Source: a virus (Duplodnaviria; Heunggongvirae; Uroviricota; Caudoviricetes). From it: 64,000 nucleotides of DNA. Position numbers and translations under genes: made by a program. Positions 2,586-57,962 of the stretch are shown here, piece after piece. Where the stretch lies: the IMG/VR virus record IMGVR_UViG_2799112923_000001; one strand, given 5' to 3'. Within the stretch, counting starts at the first letter, position 1; every line of letters starts with the position of its first letter. The notes beneath the pieces are model-generated. The model was not told the origin of the DNA. It was given only the letters and a program-made list of their open reading frames with translations, and did no database searches.

Positions 2586-3125
2586 ATGTTTACATTATCA
2601 CACCCAATTAAAAGTATTAAAAGGAGTACGAATATGGGTCTGTATAACAAACTATCAAAGATTGAACAACTGATTGAAGCGAACACAAAGATTTCTTATT
2701 GGGCCTGGACAGAAGGTTGGATTTCTGTTGAACAGCTCCCTGATAAGATGCGTGAATGTATGATTCAGTTTGGTTACAAGAAAGACGCTCCACTTTTCGG
2801 TGTTCATGTTCGCTCTCCAGGAAAAAATAATGGTGGTGATACAACTGTTTACGATTTGATTTACATTTCGCCTGGTAAAGATGATAATGCTAAGTGGACC
2901 GATTTGCTCTATAAAGATGTTGATAGGGACTGGCGTTATACTGTTATGTTCAACCACAATAACAATATGACTGAAGAATTGAAAAAAGAAAATGATGGTA
3001 AACTAGAAAAATGTTATAATACATTAAGCAAACTGTTTGCTTTCCTTAACATTTACATTCGCCATCGTGAAGAACTTGTTCAGTTGGTAAACATTGAATA
3101 CGATCAGTTGGAAGATTTAAAATGA
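2586..3125 (+). CDS. Hypothetical protein, paralog of 3888..4409
   Basis: IKRSTNMGLYNKLSKI resembles IKRAFNMGIYGKIQKI. Confidence 0.75.
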   Translation: MFTLSHPIKSIKRSTNMGLYNKLSKIEQLIEANTKISYWAWTEGWISVEQLPDKMRECMIQFGYKKDAPLFGVHVRSPGKNNGGDTTVYDLIYISPGKDDNAKWTDLLYKDVDRDWRYTVMFNHNNNMTEELKKENDGKLEKCYNTLSKLFAFLNIYIRHREELVQLVNIEYDQLEDLK

Positions 3126-3511
3126 AACCTTGGAATAGTGCATACAGAAATAATGTGAAAGAAATTTTAACATGGATAAAGAATAAACAATTATTCCCAA
3201 ATGTTTATCTTGAAGGATATTCAAACGAATGGATTGGATGCGACATTATCTGTAAAATAGGTGCTAGTCATCATATTGTGATCTGGTGTTGTACGGGTGA
3301 ATATACACATGACCGAAAGTCAAGACCATTTTATGTTATTCGTTATGAAAAGAACAATGAATGTAACAGATATGAAGTATTTAATTTAAAACAGATTTAC
3401 AAATTCTTTGAACTATCCAAAGATATTGGTTATAAGAATGCTGGTGAATATATTGACAAACAAACTAAATTAATAAATGAACAATTAAAAATTTCAAAGG
3501 ATTTTGAATGA
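3122..3511 (+). CDS. xxDF-tail family protein
   Basis: Ends ISKDFE. Confidence 0.8.
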   Translation: MKPWNSAYRNNVKEILTWIKNKQLFPNVYLEGYSNEWIGCDIICKIGASHHIVIWCCTGEYTHDRKSRPFYVIRYEKNNECNRYEVFNLKQIYKFFELSKDIGYKNAGEYIDKQTKLINEQLKISKDFE

Positions 3512-3888
3512 AACCTTCAGTCAGTGCTATAAAAGAGAACATAAAATTTGTTCGTGATTTTATGGATAAAGAAAATATCAAATATGATATTACATTCCAA
3601 CATCCAACCAGTTTTATGTGTGAAGTGCGAGGATATTCAGTAACTTTTTGTGTTCACATTGAATTAGAGAAGTATTTTGAAATTCGGAATTCAAAAATAA
3701 AATACAGAATTGGAAGGTGGTGCGGGTGTCCAGGACCATTTTTTGAGTTCACCACAAACAGAAGATGGGAAAGTACATATTTTTTACGAACAATAAAACA
3801 TCTCGGCATAGAAGAAGGTGTTAAGTTTTTTGAGAAATTATCTAAACGAAAAGAGATGATTTCAGCAATAAAAGAGGATTTTGAATAA
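3508..3888 (+). CDS. xxDF-tail family protein
   Basis: Ends IKEDFE. Confidence 0.8.
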   Translation: MKPSVSAIKENIKFVRDFMDKENIKYDITFQHPTSFMCEVRGYSVTFCVHIELEKYFEIRNSKIKYRIGRWCGCPGPFFEFTTNRRWESTYFLRTIKHLGIEEGVKFFEKLSKRKEMISAIKEDFE

Positions 3889-4409
3889 TGTTAGAAACAA
3901 TTAAGAGGGCATTTAATATGGGAATTTATGGAAAAATTCAAAAGATAACAGACTGGTTAGACCAAAAATATAACATTACTAACTGTTGGGTAAATTTTTC
4001 ATACACAGTTAAGAATTTTCCAAAAGACTTTAGGGAGACGTGTTATTATATTGGACTAAAAGATGCGGACACCATTTTTGCCATTAATTACAAATTCACA
4101 AATGGAAAACAGTATACATTGGTCGCATTATCCCCACCAATGGATGAAAAATGTAAGACTGACGATTATAGTGTAATTTTTAAGCGAAACTATTGGCAGT
4201 TCCAAAGTAGATGGTTTGAAACATTTGATGAAAATCTTTATATAAAAGAAAAGAATCCCCATAAGCAGGTGGAAGAACAGATTGAAAATATCTTTATTCA
4301 TTTACAGAATTTTTGCCAAACCATAGAATTACTGACAAAACAGCTCAAAGCCATGCCCACATTACAGAAAATTGAAACAGATTTCACGAAAACAACGGAA
4401 GAAGTGTAA
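3888..4409 (+). CDS. xxDF-tail family protein
   Basis: IETDF near the C-terminus. Confidence 0.8.
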   Translation: MLETIKRAFNMGIYGKIQKITDWLDQKYNITNCWVNFSYTVKNFPKDFRETCYYIGLKDADTIFAINYKFTNGKQYTLVALSPPMDEKCKTDDYSVIFKRNYWQFQSRWFETFDENLYIKEKNPHKQVEEQIENIFIHLQNFCQTIELLTKQLKAMPTLQKIETDFTKTTEEV

Positions 4410-4545
4410 ATTTTTGTAAACATTGGGGTTTGTAAACTTCTTTTTACACAAAAATGTAAGAAAATGGTTGACGAACTGCGTGGAATAAACTATATTTACT
4501 ATGTAAACGAAATTGAGCCATTAACAACAACAAGAGAGGTAAACT

Positions 4546-5319
4546 ATGGCAAAGAACAACAACAACACCAAGATTTCCACCATCAACGCTGAAACTCGTA
4601 CCCACTACGAACCGCTCCCCATCACCGACGAGGAACACGCAGATATCCAGGCTCGCCTGATGAAGCATGGTCTTTGTATCAAGCAGGGTAAGAAGCATGC
4701 CCGTGTGTATCGTTTCAAGGGTTGGAAGAACAAGAAGATGCTCACTAGCCCGGACTTCGTCTATGTTATCCAGGCGGATGACTACCGTGCTAACCCGGAT
4801 GGTGTGATTGCCGAATGTGTTGCGAAGTCCGAACAGGTCTTTACGAAGAAGACCAAGAAGGTCAAGAATGCTGAATATGAACGCAACATGTTCAAGGTAG
4901 AAGAAAAGCTGCTCATGGAACACGGCATCAAGATGCAGTGGAAGGTTTCAAAGCATGCGATTTTCAAGCAGGTGGCTCACATTTGTACAGACCGAAAGGT
5001 TCTTGAGGTTCTTGACGAATACGCAAAGAACAACGGCCCATTTGTAACGAACCATCTCCGTGCCACGAAGGACGGAAAGCACCTGGAAATTTTCCGCAAG
5101 CTGATCCGTATCTTTGAAGAATTTGAAAAGGATGTTCCTGATTACGATTGGCACTCCTTCCGCTATATCACAAAGAATGGCAAGGTAGTGTGTGCCTACT
5201 CTACTGTGGACATGACAAAGATTAAGAATGTGGCATTTGCCCGTGGTATCAACGATAAGTTTGATTTCAACCTGAACATCAACAACTATGTGAACGACGT
5301 TCTCGGAATCACGAAGTAA
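4546..5319 (+). CDS. Hypothetical early protein
   Basis: Own promoter (TTGACG 4468), GAGAGGT SD, terminator-like hairpin downstream. Confidence 0.85.
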   Translation: MAKNNNNTKISTINAETRTHYEPLPITDEEHADIQARLMKHGLCIKQGKKHARVYRFKGWKNKKMLTSPDFVYVIQADDYRANPDGVIAECVAKSEQVFTKKTKKVKNAEYERNMFKVEEKLLMEHGIKMQWKVSKHAIFKQVAHICTDRKVLEVLDEYAKNNGPFVTNHLRATKDGKHLEIFRKLIRIFEEFEKDVPDYDWHSFRYITKNGKVVCAYSTVDMTKIKNVAFARGINDKFDFNLNINNYVNDVLGITK

Positions 5320-9277: not shown

Positions 9278-9727
9278 ATGTACACAGAAATTTTCCAGAT
9301 GCTCGTTGATAATCACGCACTGATTATTGAACGAATTAACCAACACATTAATACAATGGAAAGTCTGATTAAGATAGCTGAAAATACTCTCAACAATTTC
9401 CGTTGTGGTTGTGTGGTTGCTAATTGCCCTCGTAAACCTGAAGAATTTGAATTTTACATTGACCGAGATTTGAAGTCCATCAAAGAAGCCAATAAGATTA
9501 AAGAAGATTATGTAAATGGAATAATTGAATTGTTTAAGCAGGTTAAGAATGATTACAAATTCATCGCACCTAGTCAGTGGGTGAATTATGTTTACACAGC
9601 ATCTGATGCTCTCAATTTGTACAACATTAAAACCTGCTACCAGCGTTCTTACATTGAAAAGATTGCAGCTCTCCAGACGGAAGTTTGGAACAAAACAGAA
9701 AAGTGGTTCACCATTAACAAGGAGTAA
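9278..9727 (+). CDS. Hypothetical protein
   Basis: GGAGG SD before ATG 9278. Confidence 0.75.
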   Translation: MYTEIFQMLVDNHALIIERINQHINTMESLIKIAENTLNNFRCGCVVANCPRKPEEFEFYIDRDLKSIKEANKIKEDYVNGIIELFKQVKNDYKFIAPSQWVNYVYTASDALNLYNIKTCYQRSYIEKIAALQTEVWNKTEKWFTINKE

Positions 9728-9731
9728 TAAT

Positions 9732-9974
9732 ATGGTATTTGAATTAGCCGCTCGTTTTGACGCAAGAAAGTCTTTCTATGGAAAGGCCCAAGTTGAAGAT
9801 ACAACAGAAGGGGTTTTTCTTTATTCCTATAATCGTAATGTAGCAAAGATTATCGGCGGTCAGCTTATTCTTTGCCCCGATTGGAATTACTCACAAACTA
9901 CTCGCAGACATGTAAAAGAATTTTGTAAGCAGTATGATGTGGAAGAACAGTACAACGAATTAAGGAGAGGTTAA
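9732..9974 (+). CDS. Hypothetical phage protein
   Basis: AAGGAG SD; RKSFYGKA and YSQTTRRHVKEF motifs. Confidence 0.75.
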   Translation: MVFELAARFDARKSFYGKAQVEDTTEGVFLYSYNRNVAKIIGGQLILCPDWNYSQTTRRHVKEFCKQYDVEEQYNELRRG

Positions 9975-9975
9975 T

Positions 9976-10230
9976 ATGTTTGTAGAAATTAAGCAGCACG
10001 AAAAGCCATTAGTTTTGAACATTGACAAGATTGAAGCCATTGTTCCCATTACTGACGATTTGTTCAGGGTTCAATGTGAACGCGGTTCATACGAAGTAAA
10101 CAAGAACGCAGTTAAGATTTTGAAGCAGAAGATGGGATTGATTGGAACACAACAGAATACCCAGATTGAACAATATAACCAGTTGGTTGCTTCATTGGGA
10201 ACTAAGGGACCGCGTATTCAAAAGGCATAA
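9976..10230 (+). CDS. Hypothetical protein
   Basis: ORF track; GAGG SD. Confidence 0.7.
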   Translation: MFVEIKQHEKPLVLNIDKIEAIVPITDDLFRVQCERGSYEVNKNAVKILKQKMGLIGTQQNTQIEQYNQLVASLGTKGPRIQKA

Positions 10231-10231
10231 A

Positions 10232-10486
10232 ATGAGTGATAGAATCAAGAACTATTTGAAGAACCCGGCGAATAAGAATAAACTAATTGAAAAGTTAAAT
10301 GATTATCGCCGAGACCACCCGGAAGAAGCAAAAGATGGTCCTGGAAATGATTTTCTTTTGACTATGTTAATGCATGGTTGGATTGACGAAGACGCACCGA
10401 CACTTGCCCGTTCTATTGATAGTGTGTTGAATAAGAAACCAACGCCTGAACCAACAGAAACGAATGAAAACAACAAAGGAGTTTAA
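10232..10486 (+). CDS. Hypothetical protein
   Basis: ATG 10232 directly after the preceding stop. Confidence 0.7.
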   Translation: MSDRIKNYLKNPANKNKLIEKLNDYRRDHPEEAKDGPGNDFLLTMLMHGWIDEDAPTLARSIDSVLNKKPTPEPTETNENNKGV

Positions 10487-10488
10487 CT

Positions 10489-11172
10489 ATGGGATTTTGG
10501 AACCGAGATAAAGATTACAAACCTTGGGATTGGGACCCGAATAGGGATGACCCGGACAAGAACGGTCGCAACGATGAATTTCGTGAATCCGAAGAAGATA
10601 AACTTTTCCACCAGGAAAAGAGTGAATTTGAATGGAACGAAATTGAAAATCGTATTGGTCCTGAAATGATTAAGAACGGCCTGAAAGACAACAAAGAAAT
10701 TCAGGAAGAATATCAACGCCAGACCTCTGGTATGGCAACTAATCTAATGATGCTCCAGCTCACTAATTGGAAGTTCGCTCACAATAACGAAGCCGCCAAG
10801 CGAATGATTGATGTAGCAAAGAAGTTAGACCCAGATGGACATACATTTGAAAAAATGATGGACAGTTCCAAAGTTATGGAAATTCTCCGTTCTAACAGGC
10901 GTAATGATGATTCTGTGAATATGAGTGCTATGGTTGCTTTTGGTGTGGCTCTCACCGATCACTGCGTGAACAAAGATATTCAGCAGACTATCCTGCGTGA
11001 ATACGAATCACAAAAGAAGTTCTTCAGGGAAAAGGGTGAACTGGAATACACAGCATTCTTAATGGGTGTTGAAACACAAAAGTATTTCGTAGAAGAAATG
11101 TGGCTCAAAGAACAGGTCTATAAAGAAATTGATGAACTGGAAAAGACACCTGTGCCAAAAGATAATAAGTAA
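10489..11172 (+). CDS. Hypothetical protein
   Basis: 227 aa; AAGGAG SD. Confidence 0.8.
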   Translation: MGFWNRDKDYKPWDWDPNRDDPDKNGRNDEFRESEEDKLFHQEKSEFEWNEIENRIGPEMIKNGLKDNKEIQEEYQRQTSGMATNLMMLQLTNWKFAHNNEAAKRMIDVAKKLDPDGHTFEKMMDSSKVMEILRSNRRNDDSVNMSAMVAFGVALTDHCVNKDIQQTILREYESQKKFFREKGELEYTAFLMGVETQKYFVEEMWLKEQVYKEIDELEKTPVPKDNK

Positions 11173-13190: not shown

Positions 13191-13226
13191 CTAATACAGA
13201 ATTTTGAAGAATGGTGATGTGAAACA

Positions 13227-13302
13227 GTCCCCATACGCAAGTGGCTAAAGCGGCTCCCTGAACGAGGGAGTGAATTCATGGGTTCAAATCCCATTGGAGA
13301 TT
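13227..13302 (+). tRNA. Atypical tRNA-like gene (nominal anticodon AAC with G33, or degenerate)
   Basis: D arm and T arm (ATGGG-TTCAAAT-CCCAT) intact; CTCCC-TGAACGA-GGGAG; acceptor mismatch. Confidence 0.5.
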
Positions 13303-13566
13303 GAAGTAGCATTGAACAAATCAGGCCTCATACGCAATTTGTTCTAACCAAACTTCATCGGGTGAATAGATGATTGAAAATCCTAGGTAATCATTCAGTC
13401 ACAATTCACCCACCGGTTTTGAAGAAAACTAAATCAACAGGTGGTGTTATACTATTAATTTGTTGTAAACATAGTTGATTCCCACCCGCCCGTCTAAAAA
13501 GATGAATGTGAAGGCCTCCGGCGATGCTCCGATAAACGCATTGTGATTTAGAACAACATTTTTTTC

Positions 13567-13836: not shown

Positions 13837-13910
13837 CCATCCTTAGTTCAACTGGTTAGAGCGCGGCTCTTATAAGGCTGAAGTTCTAGGTTCAAATCCT
13901 AGAGGGTGGA
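13837..13910 (+). tRNA. tRNA-Ile(UAU)
   Basis: CGGCT-CTTATAA-GGCTG; A73. Confidence 0.85.
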
Positions 13911-13957
13911 CTACCGCTTTTCGCCATAGTACGGGTCAAAATGGCAAAATGTGAAAG

Positions 13958-16772: not shown

Positions 16773-16958
16773 TAAGTACTGGTGCCATACTGACCAGTTT
16801 TTATTTAATTGGTATAGTTTACTATCCAACACAGAAATCGCCTTATAACGCAAGTACTGACGAATACTGTGTAAACAAACTTTTACAAAGAAATAGTTGC
16901 CAACCTGTATATTAGTTACTATATTATGGTTGTTAAAAATTAAAAGAGAGGTAAAAAT

Positions 16959-17150: not shown

Positions 17151-17717
17151 ATGGATTATAAACAATCTATCGGTGCCGTTGTTAGGCATTTTTACGAACA
17201 CCATACTGATGTATGGTGTTTTTGTCCTGGTTTCCCTAATAATTACAAAGAAATGAAGTTATCCGAATTTGGTGAAACTGATGAAGAAATTGCGAACAAG
17301 ATAATAGACCAGTTACATGAAACTAAACTAGAATTTGAAATGTTCAGTTCCGACAACAGTCATCCAGGTGGTTCATTTTATGGGCCGTCATTGTATATTG
17401 AAAATGGTTATACTCCATTCCCAGATGGTGGAAAACCTAAATGGATTACTGGTACATTGAAAATGATACAACAAGTTCCAATGTTAAGGTATTATGGTGA
17501 TGATAAACGAATTTTCCAGTTAGGAAGTAAACCTGTAAATTTTTATTTCACACAACAGTTTAAAGGGCAAAACGATTTTGATAATTATTTGAAGTATTTG
17601 AAGAAAACAGAAGAAATAATCAAACACAACAAAGAATATCAAGATAGATTTGAAATTGATAAGAAATATGTAAAAGCCCAAGACCTGGAACAAGCAATTC
17701 AAACTGATTTTGATTAA
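17151..17717 (+). CDS. xxDF-tail family protein
   Basis: Ends IQTDFD. Confidence 0.8.
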   Translation: MDYKQSIGAVVRHFYEHHTDVWCFCPGFPNNYKEMKLSEFGETDEEIANKIIDQLHETKLEFEMFSSDNSHPGGSFYGPSLYIENGYTPFPDGGKPKWITGTLKMIQQVPMLRYYGDDKRIFQLGSKPVNFYFTQQFKGQNDFDNYLKYLKKTEEIIKHNKEYQDRFEIDKKYVKAQDLEQAIQTDFD

Positions 17718-18349: not shown

Positions 18350-18357
18350 CTACAGTT

Positions 18358-18440
18358 GGAGGATTAGCCTAATTGGTAAGGCAGCAGATTACTAATCTGC
18401 CGCGGGAAACCGCTTGGGGGTTCAAGTCCCTCATCCTCCG
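18358..18440 (+). tRNA. tRNA-Ser(ACU)
   Basis: GGAGGAT/ATCCTCC-G73; GCAGA-TTACTAA-TCTGC; long variable arm. Confidence 0.85.
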
Positions 18441-18457
18441 TTAATTGAGAACAAACT

Positions 18458-19252: not shown

Positions 19253-19337
19253 ACAAAAATTTACACAGTTTTATGAAAATCCTATTGACAATCAATAGGA
19301 TTTTTTCTATATTATATGGTATAAAAGAGAGGTAACT

Positions 19338-20184: not shown

Positions 20185-20334
20185 ATGGTAAATGCTTATT
20201 TGGGTATCTTTCTTAAAGATGGTGAACGAAAGACTGTAAAGTATTTGGCAGATGATATTGAAACTGCTGAAAAAGAATTAAAAGAAATCGCAACAACACA
20301 GGGTTCTATCCTGGAAGATGTTATGGAGGTCTAA
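20185..20334 (+). CDS. Small hypothetical protein (49 aa)
   Basis: AAGGA SD; fills the gap and is coupled to the next gene. Confidence 0.6.
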   Translation: MVNAYLGIFLKDGERKTVKYLADDIETAEKELKEIATTQGSILEDVMEV

Positions 20335-20753
20335 TGATTTTAATAACTAAGTCCGAAATTGACGAATTGTGTGCTTGCTATAATCTCACAATGACTAACA
20401 ACAAACCATTTAATACATTGGTAGGGTTTGCTGTTCCTGACGATGAACATTTCTATCTCGTTATCTCACACCCAGCATTACAAAATGATAAGGAAGAAGT
20501 TGTGTGTTTGAATAAAACATATAATAATTGCTATCGGGTAACTCGTTTGTTTGATAAATTTGAAGAAAAAGACGATTATGGCCGAGACACACGAACTTTA
20601 GGACCGAGAGAAAGAAACATTTTTAGACAAACTCTATTTTCTTACACAGAATTAAAGCTTCGCCTAAACAAATTGAGTGGTGAACTTAATGATTATGTTC
20701 GCAATAAAGTAACGAACAAGAATTTAGCAGAAATTAACAGTGATTTTGAATAA
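20334..20753 (+). CDS. xxDF-tail family protein
   Basis: Ends INSDFE. Confidence 0.8.
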   Translation: MILITKSEIDELCACYNLTMTNNKPFNTLVGFAVPDDEHFYLVISHPALQNDKEEVVCLNKTYNNCYRVTRLFDKFEEKDDYGRDTRTLGPRERNIFRQTLFSYTELKLRLNKLSGELNDYVRNKVTNKNLAEINSDFE

Positions 20754-20767: not shown

Positions 20768-21718
20768 ATGGCAGTTAAAACTATTCACACATTTAAGCAG
20801 TTATGCGAACGTATCATTATGAATGGTCCTGAAGACCAGAACTATTACAGTGATGAAGCACAACCAGATGTAGTTTACATTTCAAAGGAACTCAATGATG
20901 GAGCGAATGACATTAAGTTGTGGTATTCTGTAACCGGCAACGGTCGCCCAGTATATCTCGGGTACACTGGTTTGTGTTATTTCCCAAATGGCTCTCTCGT
21001 TGTGGATGATGTAAAGCCAACGATTAAGCCAAAGCCACAGTGGGATTATCCAATGAGCCATAAGCAAATTTTGGATTTGGCAAATTCTCGTTTGGCTAAG
21101 TATGGTTTATCAATGGAAAATTTCAGTTCCCAGTGGAATGATAAACATAAGAACTCAAAGATTTTAAAGTTGGAAAAGATTCCTGGTTGTAAGAAACGAT
21201 TCTGCTATGACCAGCCCCGATATTGTTCTGTTTGTAGCATTTCTTATGAAACTTCACCAAAGCAGGTTTTCTTTGGTTGTAATCTTGACGATGTGGATAG
21301 TGATTTTATGAAAGAAGGCAGACTGCAAGCTTCTTCTACCTATATCAAGATTCCATTGGCATTTAGACTAATTGAAGAAGATTACGCAATCTACTATGAC
21401 AACAATAAGGACCACGAATGGAAGAAGTATGGTTCTGTTGCGTATAATTTGGATTTGGTAGTTTGTAGAACACCTGAAGAAATCAATGCTTGGTTTGACA
21501 AGTTTGACGCATATTATTCTCGTCTCCAGGAACAGGCAAAGATTACATCCGAAGTATTTGATTATGTTAAGACTAATGGTAAACCATATAAGGACATTAT
21601 GAAAACATATACAAAGCGAACTCAGCAATACAAGGATGCTCGTAAGAACTACGAAGATATGATTTTAGGACAAATTAAGAGAATTACAGCTCTTGACAAA
21701 ATTAACAATGACTTCTAA
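20768..21718 (+). CDS. xxDF-tail family protein, paralog of the next gene
   Basis: Ends INNDF. Confidence 0.85.
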   Translation: MAVKTIHTFKQLCERIIMNGPEDQNYYSDEAQPDVVYISKELNDGANDIKLWYSVTGNGRPVYLGYTGLCYFPNGSLVVDDVKPTIKPKPQWDYPMSHKQILDLANSRLAKYGLSMENFSSQWNDKHKNSKILKLEKIPGCKKRFCYDQPRYCSVCSISYETSPKQVFFGCNLDDVDSDFMKEGRLQASSTYIKIPLAFRLIEEDYAIYYDNNKDHEWKKYGSVAYNLDLVVCRTPEEINAWFDKFDAYYSRLQEQAKITSEVFDYVKTNGKPYKDIMKTYTKRTQQYKDARKNYEDMILGQIKRITALDKINNDF

Positions 21719-21733: not shown

Positions 21734-22492
21734 TTGCCAGCAAGTAATACTATTCAACAGCTCATTCAGCTCGCACAGTCTTTCCAAAATTCTATCACAT
21801 CGGGTCAACCAGTCAATCTCAACCAGGTCTTTGGGTCACCTAGCCAGCAGAAAACATTCAATATGAACATCGCAGACATTGAAGCTCTCGCTAATGCTCG
21901 TCTAGCAAAGAATAGTTTGGCTCTCAAGTCCTATCACGAAGACCCAGATTGGGATTTCAAGTGTGTTAAGGGAGAGGATATTCCAAATTTCACAAAGAGA
22001 TTCTGTTATTTCCGAGAAGGCTTTGCTGGAGAATGTTTGTGTGGTCTTTCTATGCAATCGGGTAAGCCAGCTCTCATTTGTGCTGACATTAATGACATTG
22101 ATAGTGATTTTATGAGCGAAGGTAATCTCCAGGCCTCATCTACCTATATCAAACACCCTCTAGCATTTCATTTGTTTAGATTTGGTGACCTGATGCATTT
22201 TGACCAGGGCTTGTGTTTTGGTGTTCCTGTAGAAGTTCTCGCCACTGAAGACGAAATTAACGCATGGTTTGATAAGTTTGATTCTATCTATCCTCGTCTC
22301 CAGGCTCAAAATACTATGGTTGCCGAGGTCTATAAGAATGTTAAAGAACTTGGTAAGCCATACAAAGATATTATGAAAACTTATCAAAAGCGAACAAATG
22401 AATACAAGGAAGCCCGTAAGAACTATGAAGAAATGATTTTAAATCAAATCAAGCGAATTACGGCTGTGGACCAGATTAACAACGATTTCTAA
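21734..22492 (+). CDS. xxDF-tail family protein, tandem paralog
   Basis: TTG start; shares DSDFM-x-EG-x-LQASSTYIK and C-terminus; ends INNDF. Confidence 0.85.
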   Translation: MPASNTIQQLIQLAQSFQNSITSGQPVNLNQVFGSPSQQKTFNMNIADIEALANARLAKNSLALKSYHEDPDWDFKCVKGEDIPNFTKRFCYFREGFAGECLCGLSMQSGKPALICADINDIDSDFMSEGNLQASSTYIKHPLAFHLFRFGDLMHFDQGLCFGVPVEVLATEDEINAWFDKFDSIYPRLQAQNTMVAEVYKNVKELGKPYKDIMKTYQKRTNEYKEARKNYEEMILNQIKRITAVDQINNDF

Positions 22493-22505: not shown

Positions 22506-22940
22506 ATGGCATATTCTGTTGGTGATTTTAAGAAAATGATGAAAGATGCGTATAAAACCGCATTTGGTTATCGCGGTGCCACCGGTTTTAATATCTATCG
22601 CAGATATGCCGGTAATAAGTTCCGTTATTGTAGTGAATGTGAAGTTAACGAACTAAATGCTCCAGGTGGTTTCACTCATTGGATTCCTAAGGCTAATCCC
22701 ACAGATCCAAAGAAAGTAAAATACATTGGTTTTTGGTTCGGTGTGTATATTACAGATGCTACCGGAACTAGAATGGATTTACATTATATTCATTTTATGT
22801 ACGAAGATACTACTATCCTTGGTGTATGTTATGAAGATTTTGATAATCCACAAACACAGCTTCAAATTAATAGTGGTATCACACCTACCACAACTCCAAT
22901 GAATGTTCAGTTAAACGATTTCATACAGGCTTTTAAGTAA
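22506..22940 (+). CDS. Hypothetical protein
   Basis: AAGGAG SD. Confidence 0.75.
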   Translation: MAYSVGDFKKMMKDAYKTAFGYRGATGFNIYRRYAGNKFRYCSECEVNELNAPGGFTHWIPKANPTDPKKVKYIGFWFGVYITDATGTRMDLHYIHFMYEDTTILGVCYEDFDNPQTQLQINSGITPTTTPMNVQLNDFIQAFK

Positions 22941-23245
22941 TGAACTTATTCCAAATTAAAAATCTACTAGAGAAAGACGCAGATCTAATTAAGACCTTGG
23001 ATAGCAATTCAAGTTTCCGATTTGATTGCAAACTAGAATATGAATACCAGGGACATGGTATTCTCTCAGTAGATGGTGGTTGGGTTCAGGTTGCCGGTCT
23101 AAACATTTATATGGAATATCTCAGTAAGAAAGACCTTCTTTCTAGGATAGAGATAGGAAAAGAGAGAATCCGTAATCTTATTAGAGAGAATAAAGAAAGA
23201 CTTGTTGAAATTCATTTAAAACAAATGAATATGGATTTTGAATGA
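22940..23245 (+). CDS. xxDF-tail family protein
   Basis: Ends MNMDFE. Confidence 0.75.
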   Translation: MNLFQIKNLLEKDADLIKTLDSNSSFRFDCKLEYEYQGHGILSVDGGWVQVAGLNIYMEYLSKKDLLSRIEIGKERIRNLIRENKERLVEIHLKQMNMDFE

Positions 23246-23562
23246 TTTTTGAACATATTGCTGATATAGAAAAATTGTTAAAGAAATATGGATTTTCTTT
23301 GAACCGATACCATGATTCTGTAATCACTCGTTGGAATTTGTATTATAATAATTCCGGCGGAAGTATTGCTGAGTTATGGAAGAATAATAAATTGGGTCAG
23401 TATAAAATACGATATGAACAGAGTGCAGGAAATGTGCCAGCATATTCTATGGAATTATGCGATGATGAAAAATTTGAACAGTATCTAATAGATTATATTA
23501 GAGAAAGAAAAGAAGCCAATGTAAGAATTAAATTATCCGATATAAAAAAGGATTTTGAATGA
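23242..23562 (+). CDS. xxDF-tail family protein
   Basis: Ends IKKDFE. Confidence 0.75.
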   Translation: MIFEHIADIEKLLKKYGFSLNRYHDSVITRWNLYYNNSGGSIAELWKNNKLGQYKIRYEQSAGNVPAYSMELCDDEKFEQYLIDYIRERKEANVRIKLSDIKKDFE

Positions 23563-36914: not shown

Positions 36915-37234
36915 CTTTTGCTGAAATGAACAAATTAGCACATGAACTCGGTTGTAGGGTTATGACCCACATGGATGATAAAGGGAATTTCTTATTCAGG
37001 ATTTGTTATGACAGTATCTGTTGTGTATCAGACCACAATTTTTTGATTTATAAATTTGTTGGTAAAACAATAACATATACTTCTAACATTCTTGTAAAAG
37101 AAAAGGAACCTTATTCTTTGGATTATACAATTACAGAACACGATTTTAGATTGGCTGTTACTTCGTTAATCATAGCAACAAAAGAATATCAAGAATATGT
37201 TAAACTGAAACAGGCTAACGAGGATTTTGAATGA
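36911..37234 (+). CDS. xxDF-tail family protein
   Basis: Ends ANEDFE. Confidence 0.75.
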   Translation: MTFAEMNKLAHELGCRVMTHMDDKGNFLFRICYDSICCVSDHNFLIYKFVGKTITYTSNILVKEKEPYSLDYTITEHDFRLAVTSLIIATKEYQEYVKLKQANEDFE

Positions 37235-37581
37235 TTAAAATGGATGGAAGTGATTTTATCACAGTAGGCGAACAATATGGATTAAAACCATATTGGGAAG
37301 ATGATTGTTGGTATTTGTTATTAGAAGATGGAAAACATTATATCGCATATTGTGTTGAAGATGATGATAAGAAAATAAAAACTTTCGTTTGTGCGAAAGA
37401 TTTTAAGTACATTAAAGATATAGATACAGTTATCGCCAACAACATTGAAATTATTAAAGACGATGACGAATTTTTAGCCAGTTTAAAGAAAGCATTAGCC
37501 TTATATAAAAAGGCTATATTACAGCATAAGATAGATTTAAACAATAAAGAACTGGAAAAGATTAAGAAGGATTTCCAATGA
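37231..37581 (+). CDS. xxDF-tail family protein
   Basis: Ends IKKDFQ. Confidence 0.75.
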   Translation: MIKMDGSDFITVGEQYGLKPYWEDDCWYLLLEDGKHYIAYCVEDDDKKIKTFVCAKDFKYIKDIDTVIANNIEIIKDDDEFLASLKKALALYKKAILQHKIDLNNKELEKIKKDFQ

Positions 37582-37898
37582 AAACAGAGGACATTATAAA
37601 AATTGCGAAAATGCACGGTTGTGATATTGAGGGTTATGGCTATCAAAACGCATTTTACAAAATGACTTTCAATAATCGTATTCTTGCTTCAGTTTCAGTT
37701 TCAAGTCATGTTTATTTTTATGATTGGAGATATTACGATAATGATTTGATAAATAGTGCTTCAATTAGACTGATTAAATCTGGTGAAATTGAGATTACAG
37801 AAGCAGAACTGAACAAATGGTTTAATTATAATATTAAAGTATTAAAAGCCGAAAGGTCATTTAACCAGATAAAAGAAATACAAAAAGATTTCACATAG
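37578..37898 (+). CDS. xxDF-tail family protein
   Basis: Ends IQKDFT. Confidence 0.75.
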   Translation: MKTEDIIKIAKMHGCDIEGYGYQNAFYKMTFNNRILASVSVSSHVYFYDWRYYDNDLINSASIRLIKSGEIEITEAELNKWFNYNIKVLKAERSFNQIKEIQKDFT

Positions 37899-37935
37899 AA
37901 TTGCGAACCAACCTTAAAAAATCTATATTAGATTT

Positions 37936-38274
37936 ATGAATTTGACCCATATTAAAGATATATGTAAGAAACACGATTTAATTGAAGATCAGTTTACAAA
38001 TTCAATTTTATTGTATATGAAGAAAGAGTACTGCCAAGATTGCCCTGGGCAGATACCAGATTCTAATTGTGAAATTTTTGATATACGAAAGAAAAATGAT
38101 GAATGGGAAGTTTGGAGTTTTTTAGATAAAATATCAAATGAAGGAACTAGAATTTATACTATGTGTTTTGGAGCAGAAATTGATATGGATGAAATTTGTG
38201 TAAAGATTGACAAACGAATTAAAGAACTTCGTGAGATAAACAATTTAAACAAAATAGAAAATGACTTTAAATGA
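37936..38274 (+). CDS. xxDF-tail family protein
   Basis: Ends IENDFK. Confidence 0.75.
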   Translation: MNLTHIKDICKKHDLIEDQFTNSILLYMKKEYCQDCPGQIPDSNCEIFDIRKKNDEWEVWSFLDKISNEGTRIYTMCFGAEIDMDEICVKIDKRIKELREINNLNKIENDFK

Positions 38275-38602
38275 GAAAGAATTTATAGCATTGGGTGAAA
38301 AATATGGATTAAAAATCCATTCCAAAGCTCATTTAAATAAAAGTCTTTATTATTGGTATGATTTCCCAGGTGAATGTAATGGTGAATTCTTTTTTATTGA
38401 ATATGAAGTTCAAAATGGTATGGTAATGTATGCCGAATCTTTCAGTTGGAATCCATACGCAAAGAGAATAATTGGGTCTAAACTAAAAGAAAACCCAATG
38501 ACAGTAGAAGAACTTGAAAAAGTTATAGTTAAATCTATTAAACTATACAAAGAAAAAGTAGCCAAATATGAACTGAGAAAGGTTAAAAAAGATTTTGCTT
38601 AA
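38261..38602 (+). CDS. xxDF-tail family protein
   Basis: Ends VKKDFA. Confidence 0.75.
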   Translation: MTLNEKEFIALGEKYGLKIHSKAHLNKSLYYWYDFPGECNGEFFFIEYEVQNGMVMYAESFSWNPYAKRIIGSKLKENPMTVEELEKVIVKSIKLYKEKVAKYELRKVKKDFA

Positions 38603-39017
38603 ATTAGAACAAATACATCATATATTGGTGGATGAATATGGCCTGATGTATCAAAAGAGCGAATACTCAGACCAGCATTTGTATTATATTGATTCACGAA
38701 TTTTTGCGGAAAATCAAAAAGAACAGTTAGAAACTGAACGAGGTAATTTTCTAGTGTTCCAAGGATTTAATTCTAAAACTCCAAAGAAAGATTCATTTAT
38801 CCTAATCTTTAATGTGTTAGCCGAAGAACTTGGAAAATACTATTTGGATTGTTGGGGTGGAACATTTGATAATTGTGAAACGAATAGTGAAGGTCAAAAC
38901 TGGATTGATGTTTTGACTGAAAACGAATTACGAAAAATGGTTGCTAATACTATACACTCAGTTAAAATGGTAGAAAACGAAAATGAACTTAAAAAAATTG
39001 AATCTGACTTTGGATAA
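38595..39017 (+). CDS. xxDF-tail family protein
   Basis: Ends IESDFG. Confidence 0.75.
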   Translation: MLKLEQIHHILVDEYGLMYQKSEYSDQHLYYIDSRIFAENQKEQLETERGNFLVFQGFNSKTPKKDSFILIFNVLAEELGKYYLDCWGGTFDNCETNSEGQNWIDVLTENELRKMVANTIHSVKMVENENELKKIESDFG

Positions 39018-39384
39018 TTTAGATGATTACAATGAAGAGGCTCGTTTAAGAATAGTTCGTGCGATTGCTGCTAAATATGGTTTTCAAGAACGAGTAATAG
39101 AAGTAGATAGTGATAATCTATTTAATGTTGGAGATACTTGGTGTTTCTATATGAGTGGTGTTGATTGTGAACATTATCACTGGATTATGAGATATGATAT
39201 TAAGCAGACCAATGTTGAAATTGTATCTTCATTGAAAATTTCTAACAACATAATTTTCCCAGATAAAATTTTACAATTATCTTGTTTTGACAATATAGAC
39301 CAAACTATAAGGAATGTTCTAAAATTAAAAAGAAAATTTCAAGAACAGGTGGCTAAAAACAAACTTCAAGAGGATTTCAAATGA
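38983..39384 (+). CDS. xxDF-tail family protein
   Basis: Ends LQEDFK; start may be TTG 39010. Confidence 0.75.
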   Translation: MNLKKLNLTLDNLDDYNEEARLRIVRAIAAKYGFQERVIEVDSDNLFNVGDTWCFYMSGVDCEHYHWIMRYDIKQTNVEIVSSLKISNNIIFPDKILQLSCFDNIDQTIRNVLKLKRKFQEQVAKNKLQEDFK

Positions 39385-39947
39385 ACGAAAATTGTTTAAA
39401 AATAAACTATGACTATGCCAAGAAAATAGATGCCATATTAAAGAAATATGGTATTGAATACAGTTATACCGATTTCATTAAAAAAATAGAAAAGAAATAC
39501 AATGATATGAATGAACTTAAAGACTATGATGAAGACCTATATATTACTTGGGATGACTGTAAGAAATGGAAAGAAAAATACAAATCATTGAAGTGCTTTA
39601 GAACTGAAAAATCAGATTATGAAAGAGCCATTATTGGAATGGAAGGGATTTTCATTCGTGACATTTATGTACCAAAAGACCCAGCATTTAATGTATATAA
39701 TAAAGAGATTGAATGGAGTATTGAATATCCTGATACATTGGAAGAAATTGACCAGTATCTAAATACCATTCAAGAAAATTTAGATGCCATTTTAAAGTTT
39801 CGTAATAATAAAGATTTCCAATCTTTAAAAAAGCAGATGGAAAAAGAAGAAAAAGATTTCAAACATATTATGGATGAACATAATAATAAACTTGAAAAAA
39901 TCCGAAAACAAATGGAAAAAGTATTTGAAGCTCAAAATGATTTCTAA
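39381..39947 (+). CDS. xxDF-tail family protein
   Basis: Ends AQNDF. Confidence 0.75.
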   Translation: MNENCLKINYDYAKKIDAILKKYGIEYSYTDFIKKIEKKYNDMNELKDYDEDLYITWDDCKKWKEKYKSLKCFRTEKSDYERAIIGMEGIFIRDIYVPKDPAFNVYNKEIEWSIEYPDTLEEIDQYLNTIQENLDAILKFRNNKDFQSLKKQMEKEEKDFKHIMDEHNNKLEKIRKQMEKVFEAQNDF

Positions 39948-40601: not shown

Positions 40602-41024
40602 ATGAGAAAAGACGTACAAAATTTCATTGACAGAGTTTTTACAAGAAATTTCCGTTTTTTGGATGTTAATCTAAAATGTGCTGATTTGGAAAACATAACT
40701 CTAATTTATGTTCACAAAGAACTTTGTTTTAATGGCGAGAGTAAAAGAAGAGGATTTTATTTTCTTCCAAACTATAATTCTAAATCTAAAGCTGGTGAAT
40801 ACTTAGTTAGTATTTGGAGACGCAAGAAAAAACAAATTAAGAGAATGTATGTTAAGATACTGAAAAAGCACAAATGTAGAGATATAAGATTTTGTAAACT
40901 CAATCCCAAGCATTGTGAAAACTCATTAGCAGCTATGAAAGAAGTGGATTATATGCTAGGGAAAATGTACAAACAACATTTAGCAGAAACTAACTTAACT
41001 AAAGTCAATGAAGATTTTGTATGA
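40602..41024 (+). CDS. xxDF-tail family protein
   Basis: Ends VNEDFV. Confidence 0.75.
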   Translation: MRKDVQNFIDRVFTRNFRFLDVNLKCADLENITLIYVHKELCFNGESKRRGFYFLPNYNSKSKAGEYLVSIWRRKKKQIKRMYVKILKKHKCRDIRFCKLNPKHCENSLAAMKEVDYMLGKMYKQHLAETNLTKVNEDFV

Positions 41025-41398
41025 GAAAAGAAATTAAAGACTATTTAAATCAAAAACTGGATAAAGACAATAAAATCTATTTTAGAAATCTATTTCTAAA
41101 GTATCATAATGTAGATGGTAGATATAATAAAGGATTTACCATCTTTCTTGATGGCAGAACAGAATCAGCTAGGTCTCTTTATCGTGATAAAAATAACCAT
41201 AAAATCATTGACAGAATGATTAAGAAAGCCGAAAAGAAACTCAATTTTAAGGGTACAATTTCCTGGAAAAAAGCCCGAATTAGTGATTTTGAGAGTATTT
41301 GGGGTGTAGCTGGCAAAATTGACGATTTAATTGACATTAGATACAAACGAATAAAAGAGCGAGAATTGCTTAATAAAGCGAATGACGATTTTGTATAA
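41021..41398 (+). CDS. xxDF-tail family protein
   Basis: Ends ANDDFV. Confidence 0.75.
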   Translation: MRKEIKDYLNQKLDKDNKIYFRNLFLKYHNVDGRYNKGFTIFLDGRTESARSLYRDKNNHKIIDRMIKKAEKKLNFKGTISWKKARISDFESIWGVAGKIDDLIDIRYKRIKERELLNKANDDFV

Positions 41399-42450: not shown

Positions 42451-42798
42451 ATGGAAAAATATAAATTCAATTTAACACAATTACTGCTAAAATTCAATAT
42501 GATGGGCTTTGATTGCCTAAATTTGGATTTTAAGAAAGACGATTGGAACGAATTATTTTATAATAGTTCTATGTGGTCTAAATCTGATAAACGCAACAAA
42601 TACTACTATGATTTAACTTTAAAGGTTAAATTGGTGGGTGATAGCATAGTCCTTAGATACCCAGGTAGTGATACTGTTTTAAAGACAGATTTTGACAATT
42701 TGATTGATGTTATAGATACAGGTAGATTTGAAACACTTATACATAAAAAGCAAGCGATTGATGATAAAATTCAAGAAGCAAAAACAGATTTTGAATAA
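42451..42798 (+). CDS. xxDF-tail family protein
   Basis: Ends AKTDFE. Confidence 0.75.
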   Translation: MEKYKFNLTQLLLKFNMMGFDCLNLDFKKDDWNELFYNSSMWSKSDKRNKYYYDLTLKVKLVGDSIVLRYPGSDTVLKTDFDNLIDVIDTGRFETLIHKKQAIDDKIQEAKTDFE

Positions 42799-50211: not shown

Positions 50212-50214
50212 TAA

Positions 50215-54256: not shown

Positions 54257-54688
54257 ATGGATTTTAATAAGAAAGTAGACCAGTTTAAAATTGTATTAAG
54301 TAGTAAAATGAATAAAAGGGAAGATTATTTTAATCCTATCTATGAAGATTACGATAGTGATTCGGATAGTTATTCCATAAAATTTTCTGTTTGCCCAACA
54401 TTCGGTTATGAAATTTCAACATTTGATGTGAAATTCACAGTAATGTATGATTTAATTTATTCAGGAAATATAGGTATTCCAATTCAATTTAGTTCTATCG
54501 GTCCAATGCGTAAAAGGTTTACAAAAAGTTACATTGAGAACTATACAGAAACTAACGAAATTTTGAAAGATTTTATAGAAATTCACAAAGAATGGATGGA
54601 TATAAAAAACGAAAAAAATAAAGAACTCAAAATGAAGAAATTGGAAAGTTTTATTAAAATCCACGAAATTGAAGCGGATTTTAACTAA
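54257..54688 (+). CDS. xxDF-tail family protein
   Basis: Ends IEADFN. Confidence 0.75.
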   Translation: MDFNKKVDQFKIVLSSKMNKREDYFNPIYEDYDSDSDSYSIKFSVCPTFGYEISTFDVKFTVMYDLIYSGNIGIPIQFSSIGPMRKRFTKSYIENYTETNEILKDFIEIHKEWMDIKNEKNKELKMKKLESFIKIHEIEADFN

Positions 54689-54786
54689 TGTAAACTATTA
54701 TTTACACAGTTTTAACAAAAAACCATTGACAGTTTCAATGGTTTTTTCTATATTTAATTATGTAAAAGATAACAAAAGAGGTAACT

Positions 54787-55266
54787 ATGAATCTTCAGCA
54801 AGTAAACCATTTCATTATGACTAACACCAACATTGAAACTCTTGACCTTATCATTCAGGAAGCCAAAGAACGAATCCATAAGCTGGCTAACAAGAAGAAT
54901 AAGAAGGTAGTCAAGCCGAAGAAGTGTTTGATTAAGTTTGTAGAAAAGAAAGAAGAAAATGTTTGGGATAAGATGACGGACAAGCAGAAGATTGCCCATA
55001 TCAAGAATCTTATGAATAATGGTAGTGGTAAGAAGAACCCGCTCACCGGTAACAAACTTTTTAATGACGCAGAAGAAATTGGTGATATTGGCGACCGATT
55101 TATGAAGGTTGTTAATCGTCTTGAAAACCACTGGTACAATGACGATTGTGGTCCTTCTGCCGCATTTGACGATTTCATTATTTCTTACCAGGATGACATT
55201 ATGAAGGACATTCTCAATGGTAGTAAGATTAACGAAATGGTGAAAGAATATAAGGAATGTATGTAA
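54787..55266 (+). CDS. Hypothetical early protein
   Basis: Promoter TTGACA 54726; AGAGGT SD. Confidence 0.8.
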   Translation: MNLQQVNHFIMTNTNIETLDLIIQEAKERIHKLANKKNKKVVKPKKCLIKFVEKKEENVWDKMTDKQKIAHIKNLMNNGSGKKNPLTGNKLFNDAEEIGDIGDRFMKVVNRLENHWYNDDCGPSAAFDDFIISYQDDIMKDILNGSKINEMVKEYKECM

Positions 55267-55709
55267 TGATTGAATGGCCGCATTTTTTCAATAAGACAGC
55301 ACTATTAAATGAGTTGCCCATATATGCGGCATTCTTTACAGAAATTGATTCAACTGATAATTTCTCCACAAAGTCAAGTTATAAAACACAACAAATAACT
55401 AGCAGAACATGGTATTATAGTTTGTTTGGAAATGCTTTTTTGGGTGGTAAACCAGTATTCGTTTATTCACCAACAGAAGTAGTTCTTTACGATTATAGCA
55501 ACCTTGCCAAAACAGAAATTACTAATGAGAATTTGGATAAATTTGCTGATAGTTATGGTGTTATTATCCACGATTTGACAAAAGAAAACCTGAGTGTTTC
55601 TACGATTAAAGAAATACTAGCAAACAACGCAAAAGCAGCTATCCAAGCAGAAAAGATATTAAAACAAATTGAAGCACTAAAAGCAGTAAACGAAGATTTT
55701 GATGATTAA
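55266..55709 (+). CDS. xxDF-tail family protein
   Basis: Ends VNEDFDD. Confidence 0.75.
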   Translation: MIEWPHFFNKTALLNELPIYAAFFTEIDSTDNFSTKSSYKTQQITSRTWYYSLFGNAFLGGKPVFVYSPTEVVLYDYSNLAKTEITNENLDKFADSYGVIIHDLTKENLSVSTIKEILANNAKAAIQAEKILKQIEALKAVNEDFDD

Positions 55710-55726
55710 ATAAAGGAAGATTTTGT

Positions 55727-56119
55727 ATGACATATCAAGAATTTATTAAGCCCATTATTGAATTGGCAGAGAAATATGGTTGGCAAAAAGAAACCTCAAC
55801 CAATAATGGTACTGACATGTATTGTATCAATACTGGTAAGACCAGATCATTATTCTATTTCTATCCAGGCGAACTAAATCGTGGAAATGTTTTAGTATGG
55901 GGCCGAGCCAGGGGTTTGCAGGAATATGTTGGTGTGAAAGGTTACCATTTTGTTTCAAAATGTGATGAAGATATAAGTTTGGTTTCTTATGACGAATTTA
56001 ACATTGAACTATTTGAAAATTGGATTAAAAACCAAACAGAAGTAGTGGCTCGTCATGACAAGTATCTTAAGGACAAAGAAATTAAACGCAACGAAAAGAA
56101 GGCTAATCAAGATTTCTAA
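55727..56119 (+). CDS. xxDF-tail family protein
   Basis: Ends ANQDF. Confidence 0.75.
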   Translation: MTYQEFIKPIIELAEKYGWQKETSTNNGTDMYCINTGKTRSLFYFYPGELNRGNVLVWGRARGLQEYVGVKGYHFVSKCDEDISLVSYDEFNIELFENWIKNQTEVVARHDKYLKDKEIKRNEKKANQDF

Positions 56120-56496
56120 TGGTAGATTACGAAAAAACATTATCGGACATAAGAAAATCCAATGAAGCCATTGATGAACTATTCTTACATTTTGGCGAGA
56201 AATATGGATTAAAAACTTATGGTATTCATGGAGATATGTGGTATCCCCAGATTAGAAGTGATACAATGCAAGAATACAGCAGAAACAAAGACCATAACTA
56301 TTTCGCAATTTGGTGTAGTGCTACTGATTCATTTTTTTATTCATATCGTTTAGGAAAAAGCGATGCTTATAAGAACAGAATTTGGGGAGATAATCAGGTA
56401 AAAGATTTGGATAAAATAATTGCTGGTTTTGTTCAAAGATTAAAAGAATGTAAAGAGCAAGAAAATTTGGATAAACTAGAAGAGGATTTCAAATGA
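56119..56496 (+). CDS. xxDF-tail family protein (QIR subfamily)
   Basis: Ends LEEDFK. Confidence 0.75.
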   Translation: MVDYEKTLSDIRKSNEAIDELFLHFGEKYGLKTYGIHGDMWYPQIRSDTMQEYSRNKDHNYFAIWCSATDSFFYSYRLGKSDAYKNRIWGDNQVKDLDKIIAGFVQRLKECKEQENLDKLEEDFK

Positions 56497-56633
56497 TAGA
56501 CGAAGATTTTTGGGAAGGAAAAGAACTACCTGAAGATTGGTGGAATTGTCCTGAGATTTTAGAAAAACTTTTTAATGAGATGATGGCGAGAGATAAAATC
56601 AAAGAGGATTTTAACGATGAAGAAACTGAGTGA
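56493..56633 (+). CDS. Minimal xxDF-tail protein (46 aa, not in ORF track)
   Basis: MIDEDFW...DKIKEDFNDEETE. Confidence 0.55.
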   Translation: MIDEDFWEGKELPEDWWNCPEILEKLFNEMMARDKIKEDFNDEETE

Positions 56634-56979
56634 TTATTATGGTTCACCGGTTGAAATTGAAGATTTGTTTGAATCTATCGCAGCCAAGCATGGATTGTAT
56701 TTTTATAAAAAGCAAGAGTTCTTACCCACTCAAATACGAACAAATTCTATTTCCGAAATTTTAAATAATCCATTTGATAATGGTGATTTTTATGTAGTAA
56801 TTGGGTATAGTAAAAAATTTAGACTTTCATATAGAATTGGAAAACTATGTGAAAATGTTGATTTGGATGAAAATTTAACAATAGGTCAGTTTGAAGAAAT
56901 TATCAATGTTCTTCTTATAAAATATAAAGAAGCAAAGATTGAACACAAACTAGAAAACATTAAGGAAGATTTTGAATGA
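56617..56979 (+). CDS. xxDF-tail family protein (QIR subfamily)
   Basis: Ends IKEDFE. Confidence 0.75.
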   Translation: MKKLSDYYGSPVEIEDLFESIAAKHGLYFYKKQEFLPTQIRTNSISEILNNPFDNGDFYVVIGYSKKFRLSYRIGKLCENVDLDENLTIGQFEEIINVLLIKYKEAKIEHKLENIKEDFE

Positions 56980-57341
56980 TTGATGGAAAAGCAATACTAA
57001 AAGATATATCACCTTCAAACGATTTAACTAGACAATTATTGCTACAGTTAAGTGACCTATTTGGGTTATATCATTTTGGTATTACCAATATGTTTTTACA
57101 TGATACCCAAATTAGAAGTGATGATTTGAATGAAACAAACCCACTGAATTTTTTTAGGGTTTATGCTTCGGCTCATGTATTTTATTATGAATATAATTTT
57201 GGAAATGGTCATCATAGTAATAAGATTGAAGAAAGTTGTACAGTAGACGAATTAACTAATATGATTGGTGAATTTGTTTTACAGTATAAAACAAATAAAA
57301 TGAATTTTGAACTACACACCATTAAAGAGGATTTTAAATGA
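56976..57341 (+). CDS. xxDF-tail family protein (QIR subfamily)
   Basis: Ends IKEDFK. Confidence 0.75.
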   Translation: MIDGKAILKDISPSNDLTRQLLLQLSDLFGLYHFGITNMFLHDTQIRSDDLNETNPLNFFRVYASAHVFYYEYNFGNGHHSNKIEESCTVDELTNMIGEFVLQYKTNKMNFELHTIKEDFK

Positions 57342-57586
57342 CACTTAATATAACAGATTATATCTTGCTTTATGACCCGGAATTTATGTTATACATTAAA
57401 GAGCAGGGGTTATCTAATTTGTTAGATGATATTGGTGCTAATAAATCTATATTATTGAAGTATCGTAAAGAATATGATATGAAATTGGAAATCAATAAAG
57501 ATTTTGATATTCCAATAAACGAACCTACAAAAATAACAAAGTTTAAAGAACGATATTATAAGGCCAAAAATGATAGTACAAAATAG
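57338..57586 (+). CDS. Hypothetical protein (internal INKDFD)
   Basis: ORF track. Confidence 0.65.
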   Translation: MTLNITDYILLYDPEFMLYIKEQGLSNLLDDIGANKSILLKYRKEYDMKLEINKDFDIPINEPTKITKFKERYYKAKNDSTK

Positions 57587-57962
57587 TCCAATATATTTGC
57601 CATACACAGAATTAAAAAAGTACCAACAGTTATTAAAAGATTATGGGTATGAATTAGGTATAGATTATAATAAAAATGAATACTATTACTATGACCGAAA
57701 ATTGTATGCCATGATTGACCATAAAAGTTGGGGTTTTTGTGTAAATATCGTTCCTTTATGTTTTGACAAAAAACATCGTTTACAAGTTATCACATATACT
57801 GAAAAAACGATTATTTCTAACAAAGAATTTACTTCTTTTAAGTGTTACTGCGACTATGTAGAAAATGAAACTGATTGTATAAAGAAAATTATAAACCAAA
57901 TTGGACTATTAAAGAAAGAAAAAAATTACAGAGAAATAGAAAAGATAAAATTTGATTTCTAA
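57570..57962 (+). CDS. xxDF-tail family protein
   Basis: Ends IKFDF. Confidence 0.75.
   Translation: MIVQNSPIYLPYTELKKYQQLLKDYGYELGIDYNKNEYYYYDRKLYAMIDHKSWGFCVNIVPLCFDKKHRLQVITYTEKTIISNKEFTSFKCYCDYVENETDCIKKIINQIGLLKKEKNYREIEKIKFDF

Follow-up and report, generated by a model that had tools for sequence, protein, structure and literature searches.

What could make dozens of small phage proteins, mostly dissimilar over the rest of their length, end in one and the same helix? The question is raised by a stretch of 64,000 nucleotides (the window) of the virus record IMGVR_UViG_2799112923_000001, part of the genome of about 410 kb of an uncultured, T4-like jumbo phage from the rumen. In the window, 42 plus-strand open reading frames (ORFs) have [ILMAV]-x-x-D-F at their end, followed by at most two residues, where the frequency of the DF dipeptide predicts 1.7 (P about 1e-46). 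Four further ORFs, at 3888, 35055, 56493 and 57338, carry variants of this C-terminal tail, so that a previous sequence-only reading, which had counted about 45 such ORFs, was correct. It is proposed here, as on balance the probable explanation, that the tail is a helix that docks side-on onto one putative partner early in infection.

A constant tail on variable heads

The hydrophobic-x-x-D-F ending first described is present but too short, as alignment anchored on the Asp shows that 38/42 also keep Lys at -14 and 32/42 Leu/Ile at -6, giving a full motif of 16 residues, K-x6-[KR]-[LI]-x2-[ILMAV]-x2-D-F. Among 337 non-redundant tails of the clade, K-14 is conserved in 94%, K/R-7 in 85%, a hydrophobic residue at -6 in 83% and at -3 in 100%, D in 98% and F in 100%, although the values for hydrophobic -3, D and F are partly set by the selection of tails and that for K-14 much less so. 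Scanning relatives with a tail profile had been suggested as a check, and with a profile trained outside the window the matches are almost confined to C-termini in four tail-bearing records (29/30, 30/30, 33/33 and 13/13), with essentially no matches in three other relatives. The core genes that were checked (topoisomerase II, terminase, and the neck and tail genes of the virion) lack the motif, as had been stated.

The variable-head, constant-tail design was borne out by the close relatives, virus contigs from the rumen, which trade heads and retain the tail. Where core genes are 80-92% identical, the same slots hold other, mostly unalignable heads with the same tail. A set of 185 tail proteins falls into 98 head clusters, variable heads joined to a constant, copy-expanded C-terminal module, and a 210-kb fragment of one relative carries tails on 127 of its 421 ORFs.

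That the heads are mostly unrelated holds only in part: there are several distinct folds, but a sizeable subset are remote homologues, and one alpha/beta family perhaps accounts for about a third to a half of them. Many heads begin alike, with a helix, a Y/F-G-L turn and beta strands. The model of 38261-38602 (predicted local distance difference test, pLDDT, 90) starts with one helix, continues as a meander of six strands and ends in a C-terminal helix of 31 residues, continuous over residues 82-112 at pLDDT 85-96. Searches with this alpha/beta fold returned YjbR, CyaY, MotA-C, a type III chaperone and Rhs immunity proteins (best Z 7.2), and no significant match in BFVD; because the matches are only middling and generic, the function of the head is not derivable from its fold. 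No homologue of 38261 was found in cultured phages, no head has a curated-level match in Pfam, PHROGs, NCBIfam or PADLOC, and PDB sequence searches with the full-length and tail profiles came back empty. A different fold is seen at 35903, where the head is modelled as a winged helix (Foldseek probability 1.0, E about 0.01) followed by a low-confidence tail (pLDDT 44-56), and in a relative the tail is also found on short helical-hairpin heads and on three membrane-anchored heads.

Common descent offers one account of such a set, in which a single paralogue family has expanded and its members have kept the tail because each needs it to fold, with an occasional graft and without any common partner. 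At least 165 clusters at 50% identity match the full-length profile; 149 were examined, and 135 of these have D-F at most 3 residues from the end. With a profile of heads alone, built from another lineage, 7/43 window heads score 8 bits or more, versus 9/444 controls and 0/43 shuffles, which is modest evidence because helix-Gly turns are frequent in protein structures. There also appears to be a single-copy precursor in a more distant, tail-less relative, whose 266-kb contig has no arrays and has two single genes with K-14, I-6 and I-3 and without D-F; one of them has the head of the family and adjoins the clamp loader, and by their sequences these genes are likely precursors of the tail genes. 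The most conserved head family, to which 55257-55709 belongs, likewise has single-copy orthologues in tail-less relatives that keep K-14, I-6 and I-3 and lack D-F. On a helical wheel, however, a proximal hydrophobic stripe (-22, -19, -15, -12) lies opposite a distal one (-10, -6, -3, +1), with K-14, K/R-7 and D0 lined up beside the distal stripe. The proximal stripe probably packs on the head; the distal face, bearing the fixed residues, is free. As the fixed residues thus face away from the stripe that would pack on the head, and as the tail is kept on winged-helix, hairpin and membrane-anchored heads and scores low in the winged-helix model, descent without a common partner is quite improbable as the full explanation.

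Protein and ribosome-binding site in the same codons

Selection on the tail was compared in 101 orthologue pairs, whose heads are 54% identical on average and which share ancestry and are not independent. Silent and replacement changes stand at 30/7 for K-14, 23/11 for D and 41/0 for F, while neighbouring positions mostly show replacements; where D is replaced, it is by Met, a variant known in some lineages. Silent changes therefore dominate at K, D and F, rather than conservation at the nucleotide level limited to translationally coupled junctions. Third positions vary freely and the tail is kept in uncoupled genes, including each of the examples named beforehand, independently of any overlap with a Shine-Dalgarno (SD) sequence. 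The claim of protein-level selection is upheld by these results.

The accompanying claim, that no SD artefact is involved, overlooked that at coupled junctions the DNA of the tail is also the ribosome-binding site of the next gene. In the window, the codon before the Asp ends in AG at 16/25 coupled versus 1/17 uncoupled junctions (p=2.7e-4), and where this codon specifies Glu, the otherwise rare GAG is used in 8/13. The tuned codon yields AGGA 6-9 nt upstream of the next start codon. The same AG|GA tuning of coupled junctions is seen in a second comparison (47/96 vs 22/114) and is replicated in another lineage (61/98 coupled vs 3/28). The SD overlay is thus real but secondary, and selection is layered, acting on both protein and nucleotide sequence. 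At coupled junctions this free codon is tuned so that AGGA becomes the SD of the next gene, and the units are thereby plug-in cassettes; since the tail DNA doubles as a ribosome-binding site, cassettes can be gained or lost cleanly, leaving the neighbour unsilenced.

A deletion scar lies at 55710-55730 on the plus strand, where the last six codons and the stop of a tail gene remain and provide the SD of 55727; strain L032, which is 96% identical, still has this tail gene intact (111 residues). Elsewhere, a 53-residue ORF between two tail genes (window 34907-35054) is missing from contigs of two metatranscriptome runs, a clean strain-level deletion. A tail-to-tail joint from 36908 to 37557 in one run has a short side of just 29 bases and was not relied on.

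The tuning, the rare GAG and a scar that retains exactly these codons would suit an element of DNA or RNA, a ribosome-binding site and recombination handle of coupled cassettes in which the protein is incidental. The SD role cannot, however, account for K-14, which sits 42 nt upstream of the SD, for an invariant Phe that is always TTY and never TTR, or for the uncoupled cases, and AGGAG (Glu) would make a better SD than AGGAT (Asp). As the sole cause of the motif this reading is largely refuted, and it is the most improbable of those considered here.

Proposed docking of the helix and its possible partners

In the proposed mechanism, a long C-terminal alpha-helix would protrude from the protein, and its end, the tail, would dock by its side onto a single conserved, putative partner. 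This partner would read a helix face made of the hydrophobic positions -6, -3 and +1, flanked by K-14, K/R-7 and D0. The heads would be diversifying binders, for host takeover or counter-defence, brought to the hub by the tail. The partner is about twice as likely to be a host protein, probably of Fibrobacter, as a phage protein. An early gene of 257 residues at 4546-5319, with its own promoter, is 73-75% conserved within the tail-bearing clade and is a candidate phage-coded partner; it was not found in the tail-less relatives examined and has no family match.

The end of the chain is not a fixed point of the motif. Phe is the last residue in 74/126 tails of one relative and 12/42 in the window, and it is commonly followed by an extension, which ranges from 1-10 residues to an entire domain. 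A fusion of two heads has a single, terminal tail, and in a head-tail-winged helix-turn-helix fusion the tail is internal; the motif has no second Phe. To judge from these sequences, extensions and one tail per chain fit side-on docking of a helix. They fit less well with a tag for turnover or for a chaperone, by which the lifetime of early proteins would be timed, even though the tail is confined to early genes, is hydrophobic and Phe-ended, and suffices as a single copy per chain. Free-carboxyl degrons are not known to tolerate C-terminal extensions, which argues against such a tag here, and the fixed Lys 15 residues upstream implies a folded epitope of 16 residues. A degron is accordingly improbable. 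Protease-adaptor tails of the SspB XB type and C-terminal degrons, which use a peptide at the C-terminus to link their protein with an AAA+ protease, show no positive sequence resemblance to the DF tail.

The helix is long and amphipathic, exposes a hydrophobic stripe to solvent past the head, and has K and D 14 residues apart on one face. This could also mean that the members associate with one another as homo- or hetero-oligomers, in an antiparallel coiled coil in which K-14 pairs with the D0 of its partner; they would then build combinatorial or larger assemblies, and no external hub would be needed. However, K-14 remains where D is replaced (7/8 M-F and 3/3 E-F tails), charges covary only within a helix (i,i+3/4) and give no sign of an antiparallel register, and an axis at -7 would put K/R against K/R. 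Self-association is unlikely, if slightly less so than a degron.

Mimicry of the C-terminal helix of SmpB was considered as well, by which the tail would bind the mRNA channel of the ribosome and tether the heads there. SmpB is the sole non-phage family in the metagenome collection matched in frame by the strict tail pattern, through one lineage (4 loci; L291:355-810, L310, L322 and L324) with K-14, R-7, L-6, I-3 and D-F. But this is a single lineage, and a pattern of that stringency should catch a few families by chance. The D-K-R and R-D/E positions and the basic helix of SmpB have no counterpart, as -20 to -18 and -12/-11 are unconserved in the phage tails and their mean net charge is only +1.3 over 22 residues; no SmpB chain in the PDB matched the tail profile, and neither tmRNA nor SmpB was found in the phage fragments examined. 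Such mimicry is very improbable.

Among the nearest known systems are the sliding-clamp-binding C-termini of T4 gp43, gp33 and gp55, an interchangeable epitope for one hub that can also work internally (PMC2988020). The DF tail resembles them as a C-terminal epitope common to unrelated phage proteins. In T4, however, three core proteins, of the DNA polymerase and of late transcription or DNA tracking, carry a short hydrophobic-acidic epitope on a flexible linker, whereas the DF tail is a continuous helix of 16 residues on about 30% of genes, all accessory, small and early. The sliding clamp, named earlier as one possible hub, is itself unlikely because DNA polymerase and DNA-modifying enzymes of the clade end in a separate clamp-type motif, L-[DENT]-[DE]-F-F. 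Such T4-type C-termini are seen in G013 (at 1548, 9431, 32934, 35049 and 35731) and G005 (at 16470), on the polymerase, two probable DNA methyltransferases, a glycosyltransferase and two small proteins. In another lineage (36% G+C), small ORFs around the clamp and clamp-loader genes (L212:457-3212 and 9465-10678) end in a helical L-x-x-L-[ED] tail.

The C-terminal tail of T7 gp2.5 is disordered, strongly acidic and strictly terminal and docks via a Phe after an Asp (PMC12339929). The tails of T7 gp4 and of bacterial SSB (SSB-Ct) are of the same kind. The DF tail shares with these the Phe after Asp at the C-terminus but is helical and slightly basic, with a Phe that is often not last and with extensions tolerated. 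A MoxR-type AAA+/vWA pair lies beside a tail array in two relatives, as at L049:16676-19532 in G005, where the MoxR-type ATPase and a DUF2201/vWA protein stand between the array and a tRNA cluster; as a possible hub the pair is not specific, being also present in relatives without this tail.

Poxvirus ankyrin-repeat (ANK) proteins join variable binding heads of one fold to a C-terminal PRANC/F-box-like domain, with a eukaryotic ubiquitin ligase as hub. The DF-tail genes are likewise viral, multiplied in number and built from variable heads joined to one constant C-terminal module, but the set has several folds and acts in a bacterial cell. In a more far-reaching version of the docking proposal, possible though rather unlikely, the set would be a plug-in library of binders whose helix carries the fast-evolving heads to a single host machine, for example an AAA+ protease or unfoldase, so that defence proteins of the host are neutralised or destroyed; it would then be the bacterial-virus counterpart of the poxvirus ANK/F-box adaptors, with sister lineages using other tails and hubs.

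Several observations weigh against docking onto a common hub. One paralogue family makes up part of the set, so that some tails are explained by shared ancestry, and that the heads form a library of binders is a step that we infer, because no head falls in a known enzymatic or anti-defence family. The tail is also absent from a more distant, complete 415-kb relative, G001 (IMGVR_UViG_3300028832_000001; GyrA-like subunit 65% identical), where small proteins in regions at 10.7-13.8, 338-353 and 380-402 kb share other C-terminal tails: EVEFMDI (14), PKGILKIP-like (16) and LLDDxMxYEI (5). As G001 has the same Fibrobacter-type xylanase and yet other tails, a lineage-specific partner is a better fit than a universal hub in the host. 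A 248-kb relative has neither this tail nor the alternative ones.

As a principle, a shared docking module thus has precedents in the clamp epitopes of T4 and the adaptors of poxviruses. No case in which it serves about a third of the genes of a phage was found in the literature searched, which mostly excluded subscription journals, in line with the earlier remark that no described system was recognised. This analysis adds the distinction between an SD layer and a protein layer, the deletion scar and the precursor genes, as well as the other tails of a sister lineage and the exclusion of the clamp motif.

Arrays, early promoters and the phage

A consensus scan places a near-perfect sigma70-type, predicted early promoter, TTGACA-17-TATATT, at the head of each array, and the nearest upstream promoter is of this type for 42/44 tail genes; late-type TATAAATA sites lie upstream of structural genes. 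Packaging of the tail proteins as virion cargo was rejected on this ground, since their genes follow early rather than late promoters. Contigs from metatranscriptomes of four studies cover the arrays but were not used as support because contigs cannot show transcription.

The early promoters and tail ORFs listed here are on the plus strand. The promoter at 1617-1645 heads the operon at 1.7-4.4 kb, with tail ORFs at 3122-3511 and 3508-3888 and a variant at 3888-4409 in which 7 extra residues follow the tail (17.1 bits with the profile trained outside the window). That at 16897-16925 lies upstream of 16959 and 17151, the latter an isolated tail ORF of 188 residues (17151-17717) without a coupled downstream gene. 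The array at 19.3-28 kb, headed by 19285-19313, has three uncoupled tail ORFs, 20334-20753, 20768-21718 and 21734-22492, the last two of which are paralogues, and the gene after each has its own SD. There follow nine coupled ORFs in 22940-26035 (starts 22940, 23242, 23559, 23843, 24151, 24539, 24868, 25323 and 25655) and three in 26666-28039 (starts 26666, 26967 and 27482), of which 27482 has an additional internal tail-like copy. The promoter at 31865-31893 is upstream of 31916-33136, where tail ORFs occupy 32463-32801 and 32798-33136.

The array at 33.8-41.4 kb is headed by 33728-33756 and comprises an ORF of 152 residues (34449-34907), one of 282 residues with an E-F variant of the tail (35055-35903; 13.9 bits), the winged helix-turn-helix head at 35903-36259, ten ORFs in 36259-39947 (starts 36259, 36582, 36911, 37231, 37578, 37936, 38261, 38595, 38983 and 39381) and two at 40602-41024 and 41021-41398. 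An uncoupled tail ORF at 42451-42798 occupies a slot kept in relatives, in one of them with an M-F variant, and a further tail ORF (54257-54688) lies downstream of the gene for the topoisomerase II large subunit. The promoter at 54726-54754 heads the array at 54.8-58.0 kb, which contains 55257-55709 and the ORFs of 55727-57962 (starts 55727, 56119, 56617, 56976 and 57570), together with variants at 56493-56633 (6 residues after the tail) and 57338-57586 (tail internal).

The T4-like character of the phage is seen in topoisomerase II subunits at 51752 and 58172, terminase, neck and tail genes, and 14 tRNAs. Contigs with proteins identical letter for letter to those of the window reach 409,734 bp, and the closest cultured phage is only 36% identical at best. 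The host is probably Fibrobacter, an assignment made from the sequences of relatives and extended from them to this genome: a GH10 xylanase in the tail-bearing relative G013 is 74% identical to an enzyme that has its nearest bacterial clusters in the Fibrobacterota. Phage-encoded, Fibrobacter-type GH10 xylanases occur in two phage lineages, at L259:3028-4809 (G013) and L069:18010-19815 (G001), and are 74% identical. Contigs of the phage family (L113, JAZLKX010000052.1; L114, JAFQXD010000042.1; and L112) are binned inside metagenome-assembled genomes of Bacilli, Methanobrevibacter and Rickettsiales, probably by misbinning. Three tRNAs are called with anticodons odd for a bacterial system, Val(AAC), Ile(TAT) and Ser(ACT), at 13226-13303, 13837-13911 and 18357-18441.

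A second shared segment, M-x-L-x-E-A-x-x-I-L-x-x-x-G-Y-x-x-x-E, stands at the N-terminus of otherwise unlike proteins encoded at 44696, 45092, 46090 and 50536, mostly behind late-type promoters, with many further cases in relatives. By analogy with the internal proteins of T4, which carry a capsid-targeting leader cleaved by a protease, it may be such a leader.

In jumbo phages most genes are small early ORFs of no known function, and the tail provides a common handle on about 30% of them. The partner of this 16-residue peptide, once found, would give a common role to more than 100 genes per genome. It could reveal a modular route of counter-defence or targeted degradation in a probable phage of Fibrobacter, one of the main fibre digesters of the rumen, and the different tails of sister lineages suggest a general design rule of large phages, not a one-off.

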